Source of the DNA: a bacterium
GTDB lineage: Bacteria; Patescibacteriota; Microgenomatia; Woykebacterales; RBG-16-39-9b
Assembly (NCBI GenBank): GCA_030704665.1
Contig: JAUYID010000009.1
Location: 330,460-394,459, forward strand
DNA length: 64,000 bases
Reading direction: 5' to 3'
Shown here: in pieces, positions 1-18,635 of the stretch
Numbering within the stretch: the stretch's first letter is position 1
How the letters are laid out: every line of letters begins with the position of its first letter
Program-made: the position numbers and the translations under genes
The notes under the pieces: model-generated
The model's database searches: none
Seen by the model: the letters and a program-made list of their open reading frames with translations, nothing else
What the model was told of the DNA's origin: nothing

Positions 1-2
1 GA

Positions 3-26
3 TTGAATTTAAGTGAAGGAAAAAGT
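3..26 (+). repeat. Copy 1 of the conserved 24-nt upstream motif TTGAATTTAAG(T/C)GAAGGAAAAAGT
   Basis: Read directly. 23 of 24 nt identical to copies at 777, 1899 and 2493. Lies 88 nt upstream of ORF 115..696, at the window edge. Confidence 0.6.
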
Positions 27-114
27 AAACAAGTTTGCATTTACATTGCAGTAAAAGTAAAATCCGAGGTATCGGAAGGAAATCAGCCGGCTGAGAAGCC
101 AGGAGGGGGATTAG

Positions 115-696
115 ATGCTCAGAAGGTTCAGTGACCTCCGGTTCGCTACCTGGTTTTTCCTGGTATTCGTAACGGTTGTCTGCACACCGTTCGGGTTTGT
201 CATGGTCAACTACTTGGACTACACGCGCAAGGAGGCTGTTTTCTACATGGCGCAGCCGTTCGTGATCGGTGTTTGGGTCCTGATCACGGCGTACGGTATT
301 AGAGGACTAAGCGGTCAACATAGCTGGCGGAAAGCCAGAAGGGAGGTCATTGTGGCTGCCCAAACTGAGGTCAAGGTCAAGTCTTTCAGTTGGTTCGCCT
401 ATATGGAGTCGGATGGCTCAAAGGCGCGTGCCATCTCTCCAATGCTCGGCCTGCTAGTCGTGCGACCAACGGTGCGGGAAGCAGTTGACGAGATGCTCGG
501 TCTCGCCGAGGACTACCTCAAGTTCGCGATCGAAGCTGGTGATGAGGACGTTTCACGCCCAACCCCGGTGGAGGCTGTGGAAGCGCACCTTCTCAAGTTC
601 ATCTGGCAGTGCAGTTCTAGGGCGGAGATGCAGGGACAATTTTGGTCTTGTGGTGTGATTCAGAAGGATCTCTCCAAGGCAGAGTGGGACGAGTAA
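115..696 (+). CDS. Hypothetical protein with two N-terminal TM helices, GC-rich (~55%)
   Basis: 193-aa ORF; hydrophobic N-terminus (FATWFFLVFVTVVCTPFGFVMV, FVIGVWVLITAYGI); no recognisable family. GC clearly above neighbouring genes. Preceded by motif copy 1. Confidence 0.5.
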   Translation: MLRRFSDLRFATWFFLVFVTVVCTPFGFVMVNYLDYTRKEAVFYMAQPFVIGVWVLITAYGIRGLSGQHSWRKARREVIVAAQTEVKVKSFSWFAYMESDGSKARAISPMLGLLVVRPTVREAVDEMLGLAEDYLKFAIEAGDEDVSRPTPVEAVEAHLLKFIWQCSSRAEMQGQFWSCGVIQKDLSKAEWDE

Positions 697-776
697 CAAA
701 CACATAGTAGTTGGATTTCATTTCCAACTCGAGGGTCGTCGCAGTCATGCAGCGACCCTTTCCAATTCCAAAAAGA

Positions 777-800
777 TTGAATTTGAGCGAAGGAAAAAGT
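777..800 (+). repeat. Copy 2 of the conserved upstream motif (TTGAATTTGAGCGAAGGAAAAAGT)
   Basis: Read directly. Followed 0 nt later by TATTAT, which is at -10 spacing (17 nt) if TTGAAT acts as a -35. Lies 47 nt upstream of the RidA ORF. Confidence 0.6.
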
Positions 801-847
801 ATTATATTTTAAAAACTAAGAATTATAGAATAAGGTTGTTTTAAATT

Positions 848-1228
848 ATGAAAACAAAAGTTGAAACTGACGAAGCGCCAAAGGCACCTGGTTTACTTTC
901 CCAGGGAATCGTCGATGGCAATATGATCTACGTTGCTGGGCAAATCCACAGCACGCCCGACGGAAAGGTGATTGAGGGAACCACTGAAGAAAAAACTCAC
1001 CAAGTAATCAAAAATCTATCCGCAATTCTGAAAGCTGCTGGTGCCGATCTGACCCACGTCGTTAAAGTAACTATTTACGTTACCGACATTGCCGAATTGC
1101 CGAAACTCAATGAAGTCTACAAAACCTATTTCACCACTGAGCCCCTGCCGGTCAGAGAAGCAGTCTGCGTCAAAGCCCTTCCTCTCGGTGCAACAATCGA
1201 AATGAGCTGCATCGCCTCCAAAGACTGA
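848..1228 (+). CDS. RidA/YjgF/TdcF-family reactive-intermediate deaminase
   Basis: 126 aa; typical RidA fold signature (GxxxVAGQI..., VKVTIYVTD..., C-terminal PLGAxIEMxCIA). Low-GC coding. Ends with TGA. Confidence 0.85.
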   Translation: MKTKVETDEAPKAPGLLSQGIVDGNMIYVAGQIHSTPDGKVIEGTTEEKTHQVIKNLSAILKAAGADLTHVVKVTIYVTDIAELPKLNEVYKTYFTTEPLPVREAVCVKALPLGATIEMSCIASKD

Positions 1229-1326
1229 TTGAAGTCTTTCACCCCAGCCAAAAACTAACAAATTCTTGAAGACAAACCCATAGTGTTGTATAATCCTTGG
1301 CATCTATACCTGTGTTGGGTGTAGAA

Positions 1327-1836
1327 ATGAAAGGGAGTTGTACTCCCAGAAGGGGAAGAATCGTGAGTAAGATCAGTGTGGAACTGCAGACAGTTGACCT
1401 CGGTCATGGTGATGTACGGCCTATACCGGCGGAGTTCGTGGTGAAAGCCTTCCGCGCAGCTCACTTGTGCCAACACCAGTGGTTGGGCAAGTTCGCCGAC
1501 TTTCTGGAGGCGATCAAGATTCATTGGGGAACTCACTCAACCGAGGTTCAATTCACCTTCTACTTCAAAGGGGCCGTTGCGGGAGGTGGCAAGACGGAGA
1601 TCGAGGTAGGGTGGAATCGGGCCGGTTGTTTCATCAACGAAAACTACATCAACGATTGGCCTTACCGGAAAGTCGTTTGGGAAAGGGACACACCATTGGA
1701 CCTATCGTCCCTGCTGGCCTTGCTGGTGAAGCGAGCCCTTCGGCAGGCTTTCGAGGAGCGGGTTCAGAAGGGCAACGATTCACTAGAGATCGTCGAGACA
1801 ATTCCAGTCACCGACTGGACACCGTCTAACCCGTAG
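1327..1836 (+). CDS. Hypothetical protein, GC-rich (~55%); start uncertain (TTG 1297 / ATG 1327 / GTG 1363 with AGGGGA SD)
   Basis: Open frame 1297..1836 with no family recognised. An extended -10 (TGtTGTATAAT) lies at about 1284-1294. No copy of the 24-nt motif precedes this ORF. Confidence 0.45.
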   Translation: MKGSCTPRRGRIVSKISVELQTVDLGHGDVRPIPAEFVVKAFRAAHLCQHQWLGKFADFLEAIKIHWGTHSTEVQFTFYFKGAVAGGGKTEIEVGWNRAGCFINENYINDWPYRKVVWERDTPLDLSSLLALLVKRALRQAFEERVQKGNDSLEIVETIPVTDWTPSNP

Positions 1837-1898
1837 AGTTCGAAAGACTGCAACACACAAGCGCTACGAGCAATCGTGGCGCTTCCCATTTTCAAAGG

Positions 1899-1922
1899 TT
1901 GAATTTAAGCGAAGGAAAAAGT
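1899..1922 (+). repeat. Copy 3 of the conserved upstream motif (TTGAATTTAAGCGAAGGAAAAAGT)
   Basis: Read directly, 13 nt upstream of ATG 1936. Preceded by an imperfect hairpin (GCGCTACGAgcaaTCGTgGCGC) that follows the stop of the previous ORF. Confidence 0.6.
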
Positions 1923-1935
1923 TAAAATTTATGCG

Positions 1936-2481
1936 ATGGAAACAATCAACTTGGGTAAACTTAGTTTCATTCCTTTTGTAGAAGAACCAGAGCTTGTGGC
2001 TGCGACTGTAAAAGACCTCATTGAAAAGAATAACCTTGCCGATAAAGTTTGGGTTAGCAAAATTGACCCTGGGCTAGCTGATACGGCTGCTTTTTGTGAG
2101 CATTACGAAATTGGCATGGATGTAGCGGCCAACTGTGTGATAGTTGAAGCTAGTCGTGCCGAGCGGTCTTGGTACGCTGTTTGTCTTGTTCTCGCTACAA
2201 CTCGCGCTGATATCAACGGAGTAGTCCGGAGAAAACTTGATGCAAGAAGAGCCTCTTTTGCTCCGATGGAGACTGCAGTGTCCTTGACAAAAATGGAGTA
2301 CGGGGGAATTACACCAATAGGGCTACCAGAAGAATGGCCAATTCTGATTGATGAAGCAGTATGTAAACAAGAGCGAGTAATAGTTGGAAGTGGCATTCGC
2401 GGCTCGAAACTTTTGGTGGCAACAAGCCTATTTACTGAACTTCCCAACGCTGAAATACTTCCTATCACTAAGACCGAATAA
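1936..2481 (+). CDS. YbaK/ProX-family aminoacyl-tRNA deacylase-like (editing-domain) protein
   Basis: 181 aa. GGITPIG and IVGSGIRGSKLLV align with the YbaK GGISPLG / YVSGGKRGLDIEL motifs. Confidence 0.7.
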   Translation: METINLGKLSFIPFVEEPELVAATVKDLIEKNNLADKVWVSKIDPGLADTAAFCEHYEIGMDVAANCVIVEASRAERSWYAVCLVLATTRADINGVVRRKLDARRASFAPMETAVSLTKMEYGGITPIGLPEEWPILIDEAVCKQERVIVGSGIRGSKLLVATSLFTELPNAEILPITKTE

Positions 2482-2492
2482 TTCACAAGAAG

Positions 2493-2516
2493 TTGAATTT
2501 AAGCGAAGGAAAAAGT
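2493..2516 (+). repeat. Copy 4 of the conserved upstream motif (TTGAATTTAAGCGAAGGAAAAAGT)
   Basis: Read directly, 11 nt after the stop of the YbaK-like ORF and 24 nt before a short ORF starting at 2541. Confidence 0.6.
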
Positions 2517-2540
2517 GATTACTAATAGTTTGTGTCGATA

Positions 2541-2711
2541 ATGGTGTTGACGTTGACAACAATGTTGGTGTTGTCACCAGTGTTGACAAAAACGTCTATA
2601 CTGGTAATACTAGAAAAAGATCTGCCTTATGAATTTTCTAACTGTCCAAAAACTCTCTGCAATGTCTCTTTCTGGAATTTCAACTTTAAAAAAAATAAAT
2701 TTGTGGGCTGA
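2541..2711 (+). CDS. Possible 56-aa hydrophobic small protein (MVLTLTTMLVLSPVLTKTSILVILEKDL...)
   Basis: ATG 2541, TGA 2709-2711 in frame, translated by hand; below the 60-aa cutoff of the ORF track. Sits exactly where a fifth cassette ORF would be expected after motif copy 4. The GTTGAC-rich codon repeats could equally be a non-coding hairpin region. Confidence 0.2.
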   Translation: MVLTLTTMLVLSPVLTKTSILVILEKDLPYEFSNCPKTLCNVSFWNFNFKKNKFVG

Positions 2712-2714
2712 CAA

Positions 2715-2815
2715 GGCAAACCACTGGGGTGGGGTACGGGTTCTGACCCCGTTTCTACCGTTTACAAAACGGTTGCATCACCATTATGCTAACCCCACCG
2801 TAAGGTTGGTTTGCC
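2715..2815 (+). ncRNA. Candidate structured RNA: closed multi-branch fold (P1 GGCAAACCA/TGGTTTGCC; P2 GGTGGGGT/ACCCCACC; three internal hairpins)
   Basis: Complementary segments read directly: 9-bp and 8-bp closing helices enclose hairpins ACGGG-TTCTGA-CCCGT, ACCGTTT-ACA-AAACGGT and GCAT...ATGC. No ORF >60 aa anywhere in 2600..3350. Confidence 0.3.
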
Positions 2816-2914
2816 TCGCCAACTCATAAATCGAAAGCTGGTTGACAACCTCAACCACGTCATTAGCTTACTTATTGGCACTTGTCGGGATTAAAAATCC
2901 TGATTTGTGCCAAC

Positions 2915-2952
2915 GAAATCCCGCTGGAGCGCGCCGCTTTTTGCGGGATTTC
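2915..2952 (+). terminator. Strong hairpin GAAATCCCGC-(18 nt)-GCGGGATTTC followed by a T-rich tract; terminator-like or RNA structural element
   Basis: Perfect 10-bp inverted repeat read directly, followed by TTGATTG. Confidence 0.35.
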
Positions 2953-3354
2953 TTGATTGTAATTGATACAATCATTTCAACATCACCTTACCTTTCCGCC
3001 CTGTTGGGCTAATGGCTAAAGACCCTTTTAGGGGAAGGTAGGTTAGACGGATTGAGGTTGCCAAGCAACTATCGACTTTTTAAAGCGCAAAAGCCACCCT
3101 TTTTTGCGAGTGGCTTTACAGCCCGTCGCAAGAATTTCTTAGTCCTCTTGTTTTGCCGCTTTCTAAAGTTATTCAACTTCTTTAGCGACGGGGCAATCGT
3201 TAGATTGCTTCTTTTATTAAAGACATTGAAACTGAGATTGTCAAGGCTAAGGTAGAGTAGTAATTAGGTTCTTAGAGTTGAATTTTCGCTGAATGGGCAG
3301 AGTAAATAGTTATGTAGTAAACAGAAAATTTTACTTCTTTTAGACCTAAGTTTT

Positions 3355-3968
3355 TTGCTCGATCGAGCATCTTTTCTTTTTGCTATACTTTCCCAAATGA
3401 CAGCTGAAGTGCCGCAAATTTATATTCTCGACAGAAAAGCCTGGAGAGAGTGGCTTAGCCAAAACCACGACAAAGTGGGAAGTATTTGGCTCGTTCACGA
3501 CAAGGCCTCCAAAGGTGGAAAACTTTCCTACGACGACTTGGTCGAGGAAGCGCTTTGTTTTGGCTGGATTGACGCTACCCTCAAAAGTTTGGATGAAAAT
3601 CGTTCCATGATTTATGTCTGTGCCCGCAAGCCGAAAAGTATCTGGGCAGCCTCCAATAAAGCTAGAGTTGAAAAGTTAATCAAGAAGGTTTAATGACAAG
3701 GCCCGGCCTTGCAGTGGTTGAGAGGGCCAAAGCAGATGGCTCGTGGTCAGCCTTTGATGTGGTGGAGGATCTAGTCTTGCCAGAGCAGTTGCAAGCAGCC
3801 TTCGCGAAAAACGCTAAGGCCGCCGAGAACTTTGAAAAACTTTCCCTGTCCGTGCGCAAACAAATTCTCTACTATATTTATAGCGCCAAACAAGAAGAAA
3901 CGAGAAAGCAGCGGGTGGAGAAACTACTACCTAGTCTGGCAGAGGGCAAGAATCCGTTTATTGGATAA
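3355..3968 (+). pseudogene. YdeI/OmdA-family (DUF1801-associated, ~190 aa in other bacteria) gene split into two ORFs (3355..3693 and 3693..3968) by a stop/frame change at an overlapping TAATG
   Basis: N-part has the family motif EEALCFGWIDATLKSLDE...KPKSIWAASNKARVEKLIKK. C-part (MTRPGLAVVERAKADGSWSAFDVVEDLVLPE...) continues the same family in another frame. Either a frameshift pseudogene/sequencing error or a genuinely split, translationally coupled pair. Confidence 0.5.
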
Positions 3969-5871: not shown

Positions 5872-7086
5872 TTATTCAACAAAGGTTAAGGCAATACCTT
5901 TTTTGTTCGCTCTTCCAGTTCGGCCGATACGGTGAATGTAGTCCTCGTAAGTCTCGGGAAGTTCGTAGTTAATGACGTGAGAAACGTTGTCAATATCTAG
6001 TCCGCGAGCGGCCACGTCAGTTGCCAAAAGAACATTAAACTGGTTATTTTTGAAATCTTTCAGAGTTCGTTGTCTTTGACTTTGCGAGCGGTTGCCGTGA
6101 ATAGCTCCGACCTTAAACCCGCGAGTTTCCAGTTGGCGGGCGAGTTTTTCCACACCGTGTTTGGTACGACCGAAAACCATGACTTTGTCAAATTCCTCTT
6201 GAATCAAAAGATCATGCAAACGCTCCATTTTGGTTCCGGGAGTAACTTTGACCACATTTTGGTCGACATTTTCACTAGTTGGTTGAGTTTGCACTGAAAC
6301 TGTGACCGGATCAGTCACGAAAGCCTGCAGAACTTGTCTGACTTTGGGGTTAATCGTGGCTGAAAAGAAAAGCGATTGTCGAGGACTTGGCAAAAGGGAA
6401 ATAAAGTATTTCACATCATTGATAAAACCAATATCAACCATGAGGTCAACTTCATCAAGAACAATAGTTCGAAAGTTGCCCAGGTTAAGGATTTTTTGCT
6501 GCAGAAGATCTTTCAGTCTTCCGGGAGTGCCGATAACGATGTTTGGATTGCGCTCCAAGTCCCAGCGCTGACGGTTGAGAGAAGCTCCCCCAATACAAAC
6601 TGCTGAATAAATTTTTAAGCCAAAAGAAAAGCTGCGTAGCTCCTCATTGATTTGGGTAGCGAGCTCTCGAGTCGGAGCCACGATCAAAGCTTTCTGGCTT
6701 CGATCACGCCAAATTTTGTTGATGATTGGGATCAAAAAAGCGGCTGTTTTCCCCGTTCCAGTGTTGGCTAGACCAATCAAGTCTCGGCCTTCAAGCATGG
6801 GGCCGATGGCCTTGTCTTGAATTGAAGTAGGTTGAGTGTAACCACGATGCGCGATATTACTTTTTAGTTCTGGGGCAATCGGGAAGCTTGCGAAAGAGTT
6901 GCTCGCTTGATAGCTTTCCGCCTGCAAAACTTCAGCGGCTTTTTTGATAAAGATACTGTGATCAGCACCAATCAATTTACTTTTGTTTTTTCCAGCAAAG
7001 CCAACGGCTTGATTGCCGGCAAATTTGTTATAAAGTTTTCGGCCCTGGTTTGGACGCCCGAATCTACTTCGTTTTTGTCTATACAT
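5872..7086 (-). CDS. DEAD-box ATP-dependent RNA helicase (motif II is DEVD) with a basic RG-rich N-terminal extension
   Basis: Q-motif region GYTQPTSIQ, motif I TGTGKTAAF, Ia APTRELA, GTPGRL, motif II VLDEVDLM, SAT, motif VI HRIGRTGRA. Confidence 0.9.
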   Translation of the reverse strand: MYRQKRSRFGRPNQGRKLYNKFAGNQAVGFAGKNKSKLIGADHSIFIKKAAEVLQAESYQASNSFASFPIAPELKSNIAHRGYTQPTSIQDKAIGPMLEGRDLIGLANTGTGKTAAFLIPIINKIWRDRSQKALIVAPTRELATQINEELRSFSFGLKIYSAVCIGGASLNRQRWDLERNPNIVIGTPGRLKDLLQQKILNLGNFRTIVLDEVDLMVDIGFINDVKYFISLLPSPRQSLFFSATINPKVRQVLQAFVTDPVTVSVQTQPTSENVDQNVVKVTPGTKMERLHDLLIQEEFDKVMVFGRTKHGVEKLARQLETRGFKVGAIHGNRSQSQRQRTLKDFKNNQFNVLLATDVAARGLDIDNVSHVINYELPETYEDYIHRIGRTGRANKKGIALTFVE

Positions 7087-11812: not shown

Positions 11813-12940
11813 ATGTTAAAAGTTGGTATTGTAGGGCTTCCAAATGTGGGTAAGTCCACTTTGTTTAACGCTTTACTAAAAAAACAAGTTGCGGCTAGTG
11901 CAAACTATCCCTTTACCACCATTGAGCCCAATGTTGGTGTGGTTGAGGTTCCGGACGGGCGTCTAGAAAAATTGGCTCAAGTCGTTAAAACCGAAAAAAT
12001 CATTCCGGCGGCGGTTGAGTTTGTTGACATTGCCGGCTTGGTCAAGGGAGCCGCTGAGGGAGAGGGGCTGGGGAACAAGTTTCTTTCTCATATTCGTGAG
12101 GTTGATGCGATTGCCCACGTAGTGCGGGCTTTTGAAGATCCCAATGTTTTGCGCAGTGATTCGTCAACAGATCCGAAGAATGACGTGGAAACAATTAACA
12201 CTGAACTCATTCTTGCTGATCTAGAAACTGTTACGAAATTAATTGATGGAGCAGAGCGAGAATTAAAGGGAATGCAGAATGCAGAATTAAGAGCTGGGAA
12301 TGAAAAGTTAAAAACCTTGAAGAAAATTAAATCTGGGCTCGACCAAGGGGTTTTGGCCAAGGGGGCTGAACTAACCAAAGAAGAGCTTGAAGCAGTGGGC
12401 CCGCTGCCACTGATTACCATCAAACCTACTATATATGTATACAATGTCAGCGAAGCTGACTTGAATGAAGAATTAAACCCTTCACGAGCTCAGGGACTGC
12501 TTTCTTCGAAAGTAAGAATTGAGAATTTAAAAAAATTCACTCCAAGTGTGGTTATTTGTGCCAAAGTTGAGGCCGAACTAGCAGAACTGAGTGCTGCTGA
12601 GCAAAAGGATTATTTGCAAGAGTTGGGTGTAGATCAGTCTGGGTTGGAGCGGCTGATACGGGAAAGTTACGAACTGTTAGGGTTAATCACTTACTTCACT
12701 GCCGGAGAAAAAGAAGCGCGGGCTTGGACGATCAAAAAAGGAACCAAAGCCCCGACTGCGGCCGGAGTGATTCACACTGATTTTGAACGTGGTTTTATCA
12801 AAGCGGAAGTGATCAATTGGGAAAAACTGGTTGAAGCTCCCGGCTGGAATCCTGCTCGGGAAAAGGGTTGGGTCGCTCTCGTTGGTAAGGACTATCTCTT
12901 CCAAGACGGGGACACCGCTATTTTTAAGTTCAATACTTAA
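11813..12940 (+). CDS. ychF: Ribosome-binding ATPase YchF (Obg-family GTPase)
   Basis: MLKVGIVGLPNVGKSTLFNALL, G-domain motifs, C-terminal TGS domain (GFIKAEVI…); 376 aa. Confidence 0.9.
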   Translation: MLKVGIVGLPNVGKSTLFNALLKKQVAASANYPFTTIEPNVGVVEVPDGRLEKLAQVVKTEKIIPAAVEFVDIAGLVKGAAEGEGLGNKFLSHIREVDAIAHVVRAFEDPNVLRSDSSTDPKNDVETINTELILADLETVTKLIDGAERELKGMQNAELRAGNEKLKTLKKIKSGLDQGVLAKGAELTKEELEAVGPLPLITIKPTIYVYNVSEADLNEELNPSRAQGLLSSKVRIENLKKFTPSVVICAKVEAELAELSAAEQKDYLQELGVDQSGLERLIRESYELLGLITYFTAGEKEARAWTIKKGTKAPTAAGVIHTDFERGFIKAEVINWEKLVEAPGWNPAREKGWVALVGKDYLFQDGDTAIFKFNT

Positions 12941-14766: not shown

Positions 14767-15081
14767 CTAGACACCTCTAGGCATCGGGGTCCTGGTTTGG
14801 AAACAGGAGCTACAGTAGACCGGCAGACCTGGCTTTGGTACGAAAGGGACTTTGGCGAGCCCTCCGCAGTCAGTGCAGGTTGTCTCGCTCAGTACTCTGT
14901 CCCCAGATCGGGAAGCCTGCTCCCACTCTTCGAAACGTGCTCGTTTGGCCACTCTGCAGCCAGGACACCGCTTGGGAGGGTTGTTTAACCCCTTATCCCG
15001 GTAAAACTCTTGCTCGCCAGCTGTGAAGCTGAAGTCGTCCCCACAGTCCTTGCAAGAAAGAACCTTGTCTCGAAAACTCAC
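14767..15081 (-). CDS. Tandem zinc-ribbon domain protein (CxxCG…FxFTAGEQEFY…KRCxxCR repeated twice), GC-rich island
   Basis: GTG start with AAGGAG SD gives a 104-aa protein. The upstream part of the longer track ORF 14767..15183 overlaps the rpsF promoter, so it is unlikely to be coding. Confidence 0.5.
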   Translation of the reverse strand: MSFRDKVLSCKDCGDDFSFTAGEQEFYRDKGLNNPPKRCPGCRVAKRARFEEWEQASRSGDRVLSETTCTDCGGLAKVPFVPKPGLPVYCSSCFQTRTPMPRGV

Positions 15082-17580: not shown

Positions 17581-18635
17581 TCAATCCCACTATCTTGCGT
17601 ATCGGGTCGAGTTCTTATGATCTGGTCAGAAAATTTCCCGGAAAGGGTAAGGCCAGTGTTAAAGTTGGGGACAGTGTGGCCGCAGCTGATATCGTGGCCC
17701 ATTGCGAAGTTTCGGCGGGACAAAGACTAGTAAAAGTGGCACACAGTTTGGGAGTGGGCGCGCGCGAGGTAGAAAAATATTTGATCCGTTCGGTAGGAGA
17801 CAGAATTTACCAGGGGGAAGTGATTGCCCGTAGAACTGGAGTACTTGGCTTGGGTAAAAAAGAGGTCAAGTCGCCAGCCGATGGTTTGATTTTTGGTGTC
17901 GATGTCAACGGAGACTTGATCATCAAATTCATGCCGACTTCGATTCGCCTCGCAGCCGGAGCAAGTGGTAAAGTGACTGATGTGTCCGAAGACGGTGTGA
18001 CGATTTCAACTAATGTGACTGAAGTTGCCGCCCCGATCGCTTCCGGAAAAGAACGGGACGGAGCGCTAAAGGTGGTTGGTTCCCACAATGATTTTCTTTT
18101 GCCTCAGCACATTGATGCTTCGGCGAGTGGAAAAATTATCGTCGGTGGAGCCCTAGTCGAGCGGGCGACGATCGAAAAAGCACTGACTGTAGGTGTGCAC
18201 GGTATCGTTGTCGGAGGAATAAACTACCGTGATTTTTTAAGCCTTGGTGTTGGTAGTGATGTCGGTTTGACGGTTTTAGTTACTTGCGGCTACGGGGCCT
18301 TTCCAATGGGGGAGGATATTCACGATAAGCTCAAAGCCCTCGAGGGTTATTTTGCTTTTATTTCTGGAGAAAAGGCTAAACTGGTAATCCCCGATCTTAA
18401 TGCCAAAACAACCAAAGCCAATCAACCTAGTGTGGAGAGCTGGAAGAAGCTTGGTGTCGGGGATAAAGTTAGGGTTCTCCATGAAAAAGAAGAAAAACTC
18501 CTCGGCAAAGTTTTGGAGTTGAAAGAAAACCAAGTGCTTCCTTCGACCGTGATCGCCGAAACTGCTCTTGTTGAGTTGACTGACGGAAAAAAGGTTGAAG
18601 TGGCAGCAGCCAATTTGCAAATTGTTTTTAGCTAA
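17577..18635 (+). CDS. Hypothetical protein (352 aa), Gly/Val-rich, no family recognised
   Basis: ORF translationally coupled (ATGA) to the preceding gene, followed 2 nt later by the S41 protease gene. Confidence 0.5.
   Translation: MINPTILRIGSSSYDLVRKFPGKGKASVKVGDSVAAADIVAHCEVSAGQRLVKVAHSLGVGAREVEKYLIRSVGDRIYQGEVIARRTGVLGLGKKEVKSPADGLIFGVDVNGDLIIKFMPTSIRLAAGASGKVTDVSEDGVTISTNVTEVAAPIASGKERDGALKVVGSHNDFLLPQHIDASASGKIIVGGALVERATIEKALTVGVHGIVVGGINYRDFLSLGVGSDVGLTVLVTCGYGAFPMGEDIHDKLKALEGYFAFISGEKAKLVIPDLNAKTTKANQPSVESWKKLGVGDKVRVLHEKEEKLLGKVLELKENQVLPSTVIAETALVELTDGKKVEVAAANLQIVFS

Follow-up and report, generated by a model that had tools for sequence, protein, structure and literature searches.

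A repeated 26-bp element between small gene modules at one hypervariable locus of Microgenomates-like bacteria of the candidate phyla radiation

Genes and element copies at the locus

The subject of the present analysis is a short repeated element situated at the junctions of small gene modules, near one end of a 64,000-nt stretch of bacterial DNA (GenBank assembly GCA_030704665.1, contig JAUYID010000009.1, positions 330,460 to 394,459; Patescibacteriota, Microgenomatia, Woykebacterales), the whole of that stretch being referred to below as the window. An earlier note on this DNA had placed a 24-nt motif at window positions 3, 777, 1899 and 2493. These positions and the strand are correct, the 24-mer core TTGAATTTAAGYGAAGGAAAAAGT occupying 3-26, 777-800, 1899-1922 and 2493-2516, always on the plus strand; the copy at 777, however, has its one mismatch, a G at position 9, outside the C/T alternative that had been described. 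In 100 shuffles the core was matched 0 times, and the 64-kb window yielded no additional copy when up to 3 mismatches were allowed.

As the note had suspected, the array continues upstream. The Logan contig L002 (9.3 kb, same genome), retrieved by exact look-up of the protein encoded by the open reading frame (ORF) 115-696, corresponds to the window shifted by 1058 nt and holds two more copies, a perfect one (copy B, L002 607-632) and a variant one (copy A, ATTTGCGTTCAAGCGAAGGAAAAAGT, L002 25-50). Window and L002 combined, this genome has six copies, A-F, the distances between successive ones being 582, 452, 774, 1122 and 594 nt. The features of the window are collected in Table 1, in which, as throughout the text, promoter and terminator calls are consensus matches only.

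Table 1 Features of the module array and its surroundings in the window
Feature	Position	Strand	Remarks
Junction element copy C, GATTGAATTTAAGTGAAGGAAAAAGT	1..26	+	Third copy of the array; motif and profile search
Promoter-like site TTTGCA-18-TAAAAT for ORF 115-696	34..63 (L002 1092-1121)	+	The module's own; promoter scan
Module H gene, 193 aa	115..696	+	N-terminal hydrophobic segments, C-terminal HicB-antitoxin-like domain; 54.8% GC
Imperfect GC-rich hairpin, then T-rich tract, terminator-like	733..758	+	Follows ORF 115-696; the L026 homologue of the module has the same arms
Junction element copy D, GATTGAATTTGAGCGAAGGAAAAAGT	775..800	+	Motif and profile search
Hybrid promoter-like site TTGAAT-17-TATTAT	777..805	+	-35 and 17-nt spacer from the element, -10 from the module
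RidA (Ribonuc_L-PSP) gene	848..1228	+	First gene of the D-E module; 47.5% GC
Internal promoter-like site TTGAAG-17-TATAAT for ORF 1327-1836	1266..1294 (L002 2324-2352)	+	No junction element there
Orphan 169-aa ORF	1327..1836	+	Same module as RidA; 54.1% GC
Terminator-like hairpin after ORF 1327-1836	1859..1884	+	Fold
Junction element copy E, GGTTGAATTTAAGCGAAGGAAAAAGT	1897..1922	+	Motif and profile search
Hybrid promoter-like site TTGAAT-18-TAAAAT	1899..1928	+	ATG of the next gene 7 nt past the -10
YbaK/ProX-like aminoacyl-tRNA editing domain gene (tRNA_edit)	1936..2481	+	Single-gene module; 44.7% GC
Junction element copy F, AGTTGAATTTAAGCGAAGGAAAAAGT	2491..2516	+	Last recognisable copy; motif and profile search
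tRNA-Thr(UGU) gene (2725-2798) with a ~24-bp leader/trailer stem around it	2699..2831	-	Within the variable DNA that separates copy F from the helicase gene
DEAD-box helicase gene, conserved anchor	5872..7086	-	Array beyond its 3' end in 4/4 genomes

The module genes carry the locus tags Q8P13_01895 to 01920, and their proteins are all singleton clusters at 90% identity. The C-terminal domain of the module H protein was modelled with a mean pLDDT (predicted local distance difference test) of 84 and has its best PDB matches among N-domains of HicB antitoxins (6g1c, probability 1.0, E 0.012), which suggests that the window array also carries antitoxin-like cargo. Only two homologues of this protein were found, one in the array of a related genome, L026, and one in L033, the latter without a recognisable element. 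For the 169-aa ORF of the next module the sole match among 5.8 billion proteins was itself; Pfam at relaxed thresholds returned nothing for the orphan module proteins, and no terminal inverted repeats were seen inside the modules.

Several of the details given in the earlier note have to be adjusted. The sharp contrast in composition, about 55% against about 40% GC, stands for the two ORFs at the higher level, 115-696 and 1327-1836, but not for the RidA and YbaK-like genes, whose values are not close to 40% (the window mean being 46%). The motif had been said to precede each of four plus-strand ORFs; it does precede ORF 115-696 and the RidA gene, but ORF 1327-1836 lacks it, the copy at 1899 precedes the YbaK-like gene, and after the copy at 2493 there is no credible ORF, only a dubious 59-aa one with a GTG start and then the tRNA-Thr gene on the opposite strand. 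The two upstream modules, on L002, have minus-strand ORFs with terminator hairpins directly after the element, so that the motif is not always ahead of plus-strand ORFs. Hairpins do follow the stop codons of ORFs 115-696 and 1327-1836, but none follows RidA or the YbaK-like gene. Finally, the degenerate copy proposed at 3287 (3287..3312) is not counted here as a copy of the array, only GTTGAATTT being common to both and the profile described below missing the site (E > 50).

The same locus in related genomes

Relatives of the helicase were found only in metagenome-assembled genomes (MAGs) of the candidate phyla radiation (CPR, Patescibacteria) that are of Microgenomates type, i.e. Daviesbacteria, Woykebacteria and Levybacteria. 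The genomic context is that of a cellular CPR chromosome, with contigs of 915 and 938 kb and with genes for ribosomal proteins, SSB and YchF nearby. It should be pointed out that several CPR MAG records (L004, L005, L012, L013 and others) bear wrong organism labels, such as 'uncultured Gammaproteobacteria' or 'Candidatus Nanoarchaeia'; the helicase, YchF, S6 and SSB neighbourhoods of these mislabelled MAGs fit Microgenomates-type genomes.

Arrays were compared in four genomes, all against all. Beside the six copies of the window genome there are three in L004 (OZ246414.1; helicase 78%; ATTTGCTTTCAAGCGARGGAA..), four and a decayed one in L026 (ENA k141_834234, also present in JGI and Logan contigs; helicase 78%; ATTTGCGTTCAAGCGAAGGAAAAAAT and variants) and five in L005 (DATBWR010000013.1; helicase 69%; ATTTGCTTTC-C[GTA]AG[GC]C-AGGAAAAAGT, the arms being the same and the central 6 nt different). 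All of these 18 copies are intergenic, form direct repeats and run in the direction opposite to that of the helicase gene. With a position matrix derived from them the copies score 21.6-36 bits, the background in ~450 kb of fetched loci reaching at most 16.7 bits, and an nhmmer profile recovers 18/18 copies, on one strand, with E-values from 1e-6 to 5e-3.

The full element, of 26 bp, reads ATTTGCTTTC-AAGCGA-AGGAAAAAGT, the left arm being GATTGAATTT in the window genome, and may be described as a 10-nt arm, a 6-nt centre and a second 10-nt arm. The arms are conserved across the four genomes; the centre is AAGCGA in three of them and C-N-A-G-S-C in L005, among whose five copies it varies. Conservation is highest at positions 3-5 (TTG), 8-9 (TT) and 17-23 (AGGAAAA). 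No convincing dyad symmetry was found in the arms, which are not inverted repeats: a weak TTTCC/GGAAA dyad of some copies is missing from the window variant, and a small stem within the element is not kept among the variants. The edges of the repeat are not sharp, weaker similarity reaching beyond the 26 bp up to ~37 bp. Copies within one genome are more alike than copies of different genomes, and the left arm GATTGAATTT is found in five copies of the window genome and in no other genome. The exception is copy A, which has a left arm of L026 type and, at its left, a module of L026 type as well.

As far as the gene content is concerned, the four genomes have four different module sets at one locus, with only two modules shared, so the same genes are not kept in the same order by the relatives. 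The modules of L004 are a reverse PIN_3 plus RHH pair and a forward DUF4258 plus DUF2283 pair; those of L026 are a two-gene reverse module, a 241-aa orphan, DUF488 and a 166-aa orphan; and those of L005 comprise two HicB-HicA pairs (one forward, one reverse), a reverse DUF2283 pair and a 1.3-kb composite. The first shared module is module H, represented in L026 by a 119-aa homologue of the protein of ORF 115-696; the homology stops ~14 nt short of the element, and what comes next is RidA in the window genome versus an unrelated reverse module in L026. The second is module Z, the left flanks of copy A and of the L026 copy Y2 being 95% identical over 39 nt; here the identity continues through the element and ends at its right edge, with unrelated modules beyond. 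The order, moreover, differs, being Z-A-x-B-x-C-H-D in the window genome and H-Y1-Z-Y2 in L026. Since the homology of the shared modules ends at the element, the locus represents a variable cassette array.

Concerning the flanks of individual copies, those of copy F (CAAGAAG / element / TGATTACTA; window 2491-2530) resemble the left flank of copy A, CAAGAAGTTTTGATTACTA (L002 1-24), as if an element had been inserted into such a sequence; most of what lies to the left of copy A belongs to the promoter region of module Z, which is reverse-oriented and occurs in L026 as well.

Outside these arrays the element was not encountered. The exact motif has 0 matches in a public collection of genome contigs. 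A match in the metagenome contig L001, within a coding region of an AT-rich genome, is due to chance, as are those in the viral contigs L025, L034 and L035, which are single and lie inside genes (the window, ancestral and L005 variants having been scanned); the viral contig scans with these three variants gave no link of the element to phages or plasmids. No Rfam match for the element or the array was obtained at the gathering score or at E <= 1, and a reading of the element as an RNA element was rejected on this ground and because the internal stem is not maintained among variants. The element was also not found in L031, L032, L036, L038, L039 and 17 more distant helicase loci (L031 and L032 extending only 1.5-2.8 kb beyond the helicase). 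Being confined to one locus, it is not a generic promoter or leader; the earlier note had considered that the motif might be found upstream of many housekeeping genes, and no other copy exists in the 64 kb.

The variability extends to the DNA between copy F and the helicase gene. With its leader/trailer stem, followed by a U-run, the tRNA-Thr region has a predicted RNA fold of -63.4 kcal/mol (z = -6.4), and no tRNA was found at the equivalent place in five related loci; the tRNA-Thr gene itself therefore falls within the variable stretch beside the array. In the surroundings, three GTTGAC(A) repeats and a promoter-like site TTGACA-17-AATACT at window 2540-2620 (plus strand) are directed rightward, antisense to the tRNA-Thr, towards DNA in which no credible ORF is present, and terminator-like hairpins at ~2916-2953 and 3093-3118 belong to the same 880-nt non-coding region. 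Further on, a YdeI-like gene is split at window 3397-3968 (plus strand), the ORFs 3397-3693 (DUF8412) and 3693-3968 (OmdA) matching separately; because L036 has a single 187-aa gene with DUF8412 and OmdA, a frameshift or a real split is likely in the window.

A few other repeated sequences were observed at the related loci. The terminator-like hairpin AGGACGACCAAC..GGCCGTCCT recurs after small ORFs at L002 66-89 (to the right of copy A), L038 2177 and 9705, and L039 9775; it is present also in a relative with 72% helicase identity and without an array, the adjoining small ORFs being weakly similar (tblastx E 4e-4), and may be the mark of another kind of small mobile two-gene unit. Beyond the helicase of L036 (70% helicase identity) three genes each follow a near-identical ~45-nt promoter/leader, TTGCAGAATTAACTTCTGTGTGAAATAATTTTCTTAATG (12100-12145, 12753-12798 and 14815-14860), which differs in sequence from the junction element, but here, too, the locus has a regulatory junction that is repeated. 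The minus strand of L026 at 17700-18560 holds a three-gene operon of higher GC, including the module H homologue, in which each gene is preceded by the leader GGCGAAAGCC(N)AAGGAGG, kept also in L033 (460-490). In L004, at 12270-12330 (minus strand), the DNA that separates the junction element from the DUF4258/DUF2283 module's own promoter contains two direct repeats of AAGCAAAGCTTGC, which have the appearance of an operator for autoregulation of this toxin-antitoxin pair.

Predicted promoter half of the element and proposed recombination at its copies

A -35-like hexamer, TTGNNT, occupies a fixed position of the element in 17/18 copies. The best -10 hexamer at 16-18 nt from it was taken for each copy and regarded as good when matching at least 5/6 positions, with A2 and T6. 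A good -10, at 17-18 nt, is present in five of the 18 copies, namely D and E of the window, Y2 and Y4 of L026 and V5 of L005. In exactly these copies a forward gene that lacks a promoter of its own comes shortly after the element (the assignment to the class 'own promoter' being partly by eye), the remaining copies giving 0/13; with classes based on orientation only, the figures are 5/10 versus 0/8 (Fisher p about 0.03). An independent promoter scan calls D, E and Y4 promoter-like. Two of these sites had been proposed in the earlier note as TTGAAT with a 17-nt spacer, and the scan does call both, except that the copy at 1899 reads TTGAAT-18-TAAAAT. In E, Y4 and V5 the start codon comes 7-10 nt after the -10, so the predicted transcripts would be leaderless or nearly so. 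Furthermore, at D, E, Y1, Y3 and Y4, where forward genes end before the element, a GC-rich hairpin with a T-rich tail precedes it. The genes after the element are reverse-oriented in 7/18 copies and absent in 1/18, and at least five forward modules have a promoter-like site of their own further downstream.

Based on these results, we read the 26-bp element as the junction of self-contained modules in one hypervariable locus of a small clade of Microgenomates-like CPR bacteria. It is probably a recombination junction of one kind or another, and we conclude that it has a second role, in which it provides the -35 and spacer of a predicted hybrid promoter. In its general form, the earlier suggestion of a recombination-driven cassette array has been borne out by the upstream extension, the different modules in three relatives, the breaks of homology at the element and the frequency of toxin-antitoxin modules.

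The modules would be lost, gained and re-ordered when copies of the element recombine. With the copies arranged as direct repeats, an exchange between any two would excise the intervening module as a circle with one copy, and DNA bearing a copy could re-enter at any resident copy. As for the enzymology, we tentatively prefer, by analogy and with a confidence that stays short of an even chance, homology-driven exchange between short conserved regulatory junctions—comparable to the promoter-early stem-loop (PeSL) cassettes of phages discussed below—over a dedicated integrase beside the array; this preference is supported by the correlation with promoters, by the terminators, by the finding of no recombinase nearby and by the lack of dyad symmetry. 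In expression, the element would act as a portable half promoter, TTGNNT serving as the -35 and the conserved body as the 17-nt spacer, so that a forward module starting with a TATAAT-like hexamer would be transcribed from the hybrid promoter, which the terminator hairpin of the preceding module would insulate.

Several points weigh against this homology-driven, promoter-bearing junction. Only 5/18 copies look like working promoters, and the class of modules with their own promoter was, as said, drawn partly by eye. The most conserved part of the element is the would-be promoter spacer, AAGCGAAGGAAAAAG, and not the -35 hexamer; such conservation is not explained by sigma factor recognition and suggests a sequence-specific protein. 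The arm-centre-arm layout with its lineage-specific centre has the look of a core recombination site, and with 26 bp (~37 bp if the weaker similarity is counted) the repeat is close to the minimum that RecA-type recombination requires. The homology model does not account for the way in which newly arrived foreign genes would gain flanking copies, and a recombinase could lie upstream of the window, where only 1 kb is visible. PeSLs, in addition, have so far been reported from phage genomes only, in which recombination is very active.

Nearly as likely, though again short of an even chance, is a dedicated site-specific recombinase that is encoded elsewhere in the genome and has the element as its core site; it would act as host XerCD does on dif modules, with circles excised and re-inserted at any copy and the -35 co-opted secondarily. 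The 10-6-10 layout, the arms conserved in four genomes and the lineage-dependent 6-bp centre are in line with such a site, as are the shortness of the repeat, a 'spacer' conserved above the -35 and beyond the needs of a promoter, the single orientation of the copies and the breakpoints of homology at the element. The richness in toxin-antitoxin modules would likewise recall chromosomal integrons and dif-module plasmids (PMC13141974), and the L026-type left arm of copy A beside an L026-type module is what may be expected if a module travels with its site. The searches, however, revealed no tyrosine or serine recombinase, IS608-type TnpA or Cas1 relative in the window or in the 4-10 kb around the arrays of the three relatives: tblastn with IntI1 and XerD (E <= 1) gave no match in the window, L002, L004, L005 and L026, only 1 kb upstream of the window being covered; Hin, gamma-delta resolvase, IS608 TnpA and Cas1 gave none in the window and array loci; and in L004, L005 and L026 no gene called in the 4-10 kb around the arrays belonged to the Phage_integrase Pfam family. 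The tblastn comparison is a moderate test. Against such a recombinase there are also the arms, which are not inverted repeats and keep their weak dyad only in some copies and not in the window variant, the differences in the centre among the five L005 copies, and the -10 correlation, which would be left as a coincidence or a later adaptation. Combined with the promoter function, a recombinase encoded elsewhere would make the locus an integron-independent gene-capture platform of CPR/Patescibacteria, in which a 26-bp att-like element supplies the -35 and spacer so that promoterless modules are expressed on insertion, the cargo consisting of toxin-antitoxin pairs, higher-GC foreign genes and perhaps a tRNA gene; we offer this as a possibility of rather low probability.

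A purely regulatory element, i.e. a promoter/operator under one shared regulator, the differences between genomes being ordinary insertions and deletions unrelated to it, is unlikely. The earlier note had raised a promoter or operator as its alternative, and a plausible -35 is indeed found in the five copies with a good -10; the fixed position of TTGNNT, the three copies called by the scan and a conserved spacer that could be an operator all fit. But in eight of the 18 copies what comes after the element is a reverse-oriented gene or no gene at all, five forward modules have their own promoter downstream, the most conserved part is the 'spacer', and the copies keep one orientation irrespective of that of the genes. 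For both shared modules the homology ends at the element, which is, besides, restricted to one hypervariable locus.

Very unlikely, in our opinion, are dif-like sites, the array then being a stack of Xer-dependent integrated elements (IMEX) or of chromosomal dif modules. In size and arm-spacer-arm layout the element does come near the dif site, which has 28 bp in an 11-6-11 arrangement with imperfectly inverted XerC and XerD arms. Small modules with frequent toxin-antitoxin pairs are also found among the dif modules of Acinetobacter, and the lack of a dedicated recombinase nearby is to be expected if the host Xer acts. The GC skew, however, does not change sign across the array in L004, L026 or L005, nor anywhere in the window, which places the locus away from the replication terminus; a dif/terminus reading was rejected on that basis. 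The arms are not inverted repeats and bear no resemblance to the inner dif consensus ATAA-N6-TTAT, all copies are direct instead of alternating in orientation as dif modules do, and no Xer-like gene was found in the sequence examined.

More improbable still is the duplication of a fixed 24-26-bp target by each insertion, comparable to CRISPR repeat duplication or casposon target-site duplication, by which the copies would be made by an integrase and not borne by the modules. It could account for near-identical, genome-specific copies, five of those in the window genome sharing the derived left arm, and for higher-GC foreign genes flanked by the resident variant; yet no Cas1 or transposase relative was detected, the repeat edges are blurred, the modules have no terminal inverted repeats and the foreign-type left arm of copy A stands together with its module. 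A CRISPR array as such, in which repeats of 23-47 nt alternate with spacers of 25-75 nt and cas genes are usually present, is ruled out by the spacings of 452-1122 nt filled with whole genes, together with the absence of Cas1 and Rfam matches.

The weakest of the alternatives is the one the earlier note had put forward, an integron-style array with the motif as the 3' core (the R' end) of an attC site. The single strand of an attC site, an imperfect palindrome of 57-141 nt, pairs as R''-L''/L'-R' and leaves extrahelical bases. When single-strand DNA folds were computed for eight junctions (80-130 nt ending in the element), the element was unpaired or paired inconsistently, the hairpins upstream of it being separate, terminator-like stems, and no R'' partner ATTCAAC was found upstream; attC-like folding was rejected accordingly. 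GTTGAAT, which fits GTTRRRY, begins only copies E and F; its place is taken by GATTGAAT in B, C and D and by ATTTGCK, ATTTGAT or similar in copy A and the 12 copies of the relatives. A classical integron or CALIN (an attC cluster without integrase) is hence hardly credible in spite of the array layout, the toxin-antitoxin cassettes and a content that differs among relatives at one locus, as is asked of an integron, since there is neither an attC-like hairpin nor a conserved GTTRRRY, the conserved sequence sits after the supposed crossover, in a part that is unrelated from one integron cassette to the next, and no IntI-like gene was found in the window, L002 and the loci of three relatives. Integron cassettes are mostly promoterless and co-oriented, whereas close to half of the present modules are reversed or carry promoters of their own.

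Comparison with known systems

CPR bacteria have very small genomes with few recognised mobile elements, and their acquisition of accessory genes is poorly understood; no description of arrays such as the present one in these bacteria was found in the literature. A single locus collecting different small modules, many of them toxin-antitoxin pairs or genes of foreign composition, would be a dedicated site of gene turnover and would exemplify an integron-like organisation that arose with neither attC sites nor an integrase beside it. If the element truly unites a recombination site with half a promoter, this would be a compact design for gene capture and expression, and its sequence would provide a handle for finding such arrays in metagenomes.

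The PeSL cassettes of T4-type phages (PMC2839356, PMC4122927) are similar in that small, often orphan genes fill a hyperplastic stretch flanked by conserved genes and that the breakpoints between related genomes fall in the junction motifs. In PeSLs such a motif consists of a terminator stem-loop and, after it, a conserved sigma-70-like promoter, to which the terminator-like hairpins and the -35-like hexamer of the present junctions would correspond; no dedicated integrase takes part, none having been found near the present arrays either, and exchange between nearby motifs forms mini-circles. PeSLs, however, are phage-borne, number dozens, occupy several regions and conserve the whole promoter, whereas the present array resides at one locus of a cellular CPR chromosome, only the -35 and spacer being conserved, the spacer more so than the -35, and the -10 belonging to the module. 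With such a chromosomal context the array is not a PeSL member in the strict sense.

The dif modules of Acinetobacter Rep_3 plasmids and the Xer-dependent integrated elements (PMC13141974, PMC6449649) likewise have short arm-6-bp-arm sites, small modules with many toxin-antitoxin pairs and a recombinase that is not encoded beside the modules, their reactions depending on matching spacers. The pdif sites, on the other hand, are inverted-repeat XerC/XerD sites in alternating orientation, whereas the arms here are asymmetric and the copies all direct; the array is, moreover, chromosomal, away from the terminus, and without sequence similarity to the inner dif consensus.

With integron arrays and CALINs the locus shares the tandem small cassettes, a repeat in one orientation, the variable content, the toxin-antitoxin cassettes and the genes of foreign composition. 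It differs from them in having a 26-bp repeat conserved in sequence and not in structure, with neither an attC hairpin nor a conserved GTTRRRY; in having many modules with their own promoter and terminator, in either orientation; and in that no adjacent intI, attI or Pc was found in the window, in the 1 kb upstream of it and in the loci of the relatives.

The ends of insertion sequences, finally, may carry outward-facing -35 hexamers that form hybrid promoters with neighbouring DNA, so that there, too, the boundary of a mobile element gives a -35 at the right distance from the -10 of its neighbour. In the present array, unlike in insertion sequences, no transposase was detected and there are no terminal inverted repeats, and the -35 belongs to the repeated junction.

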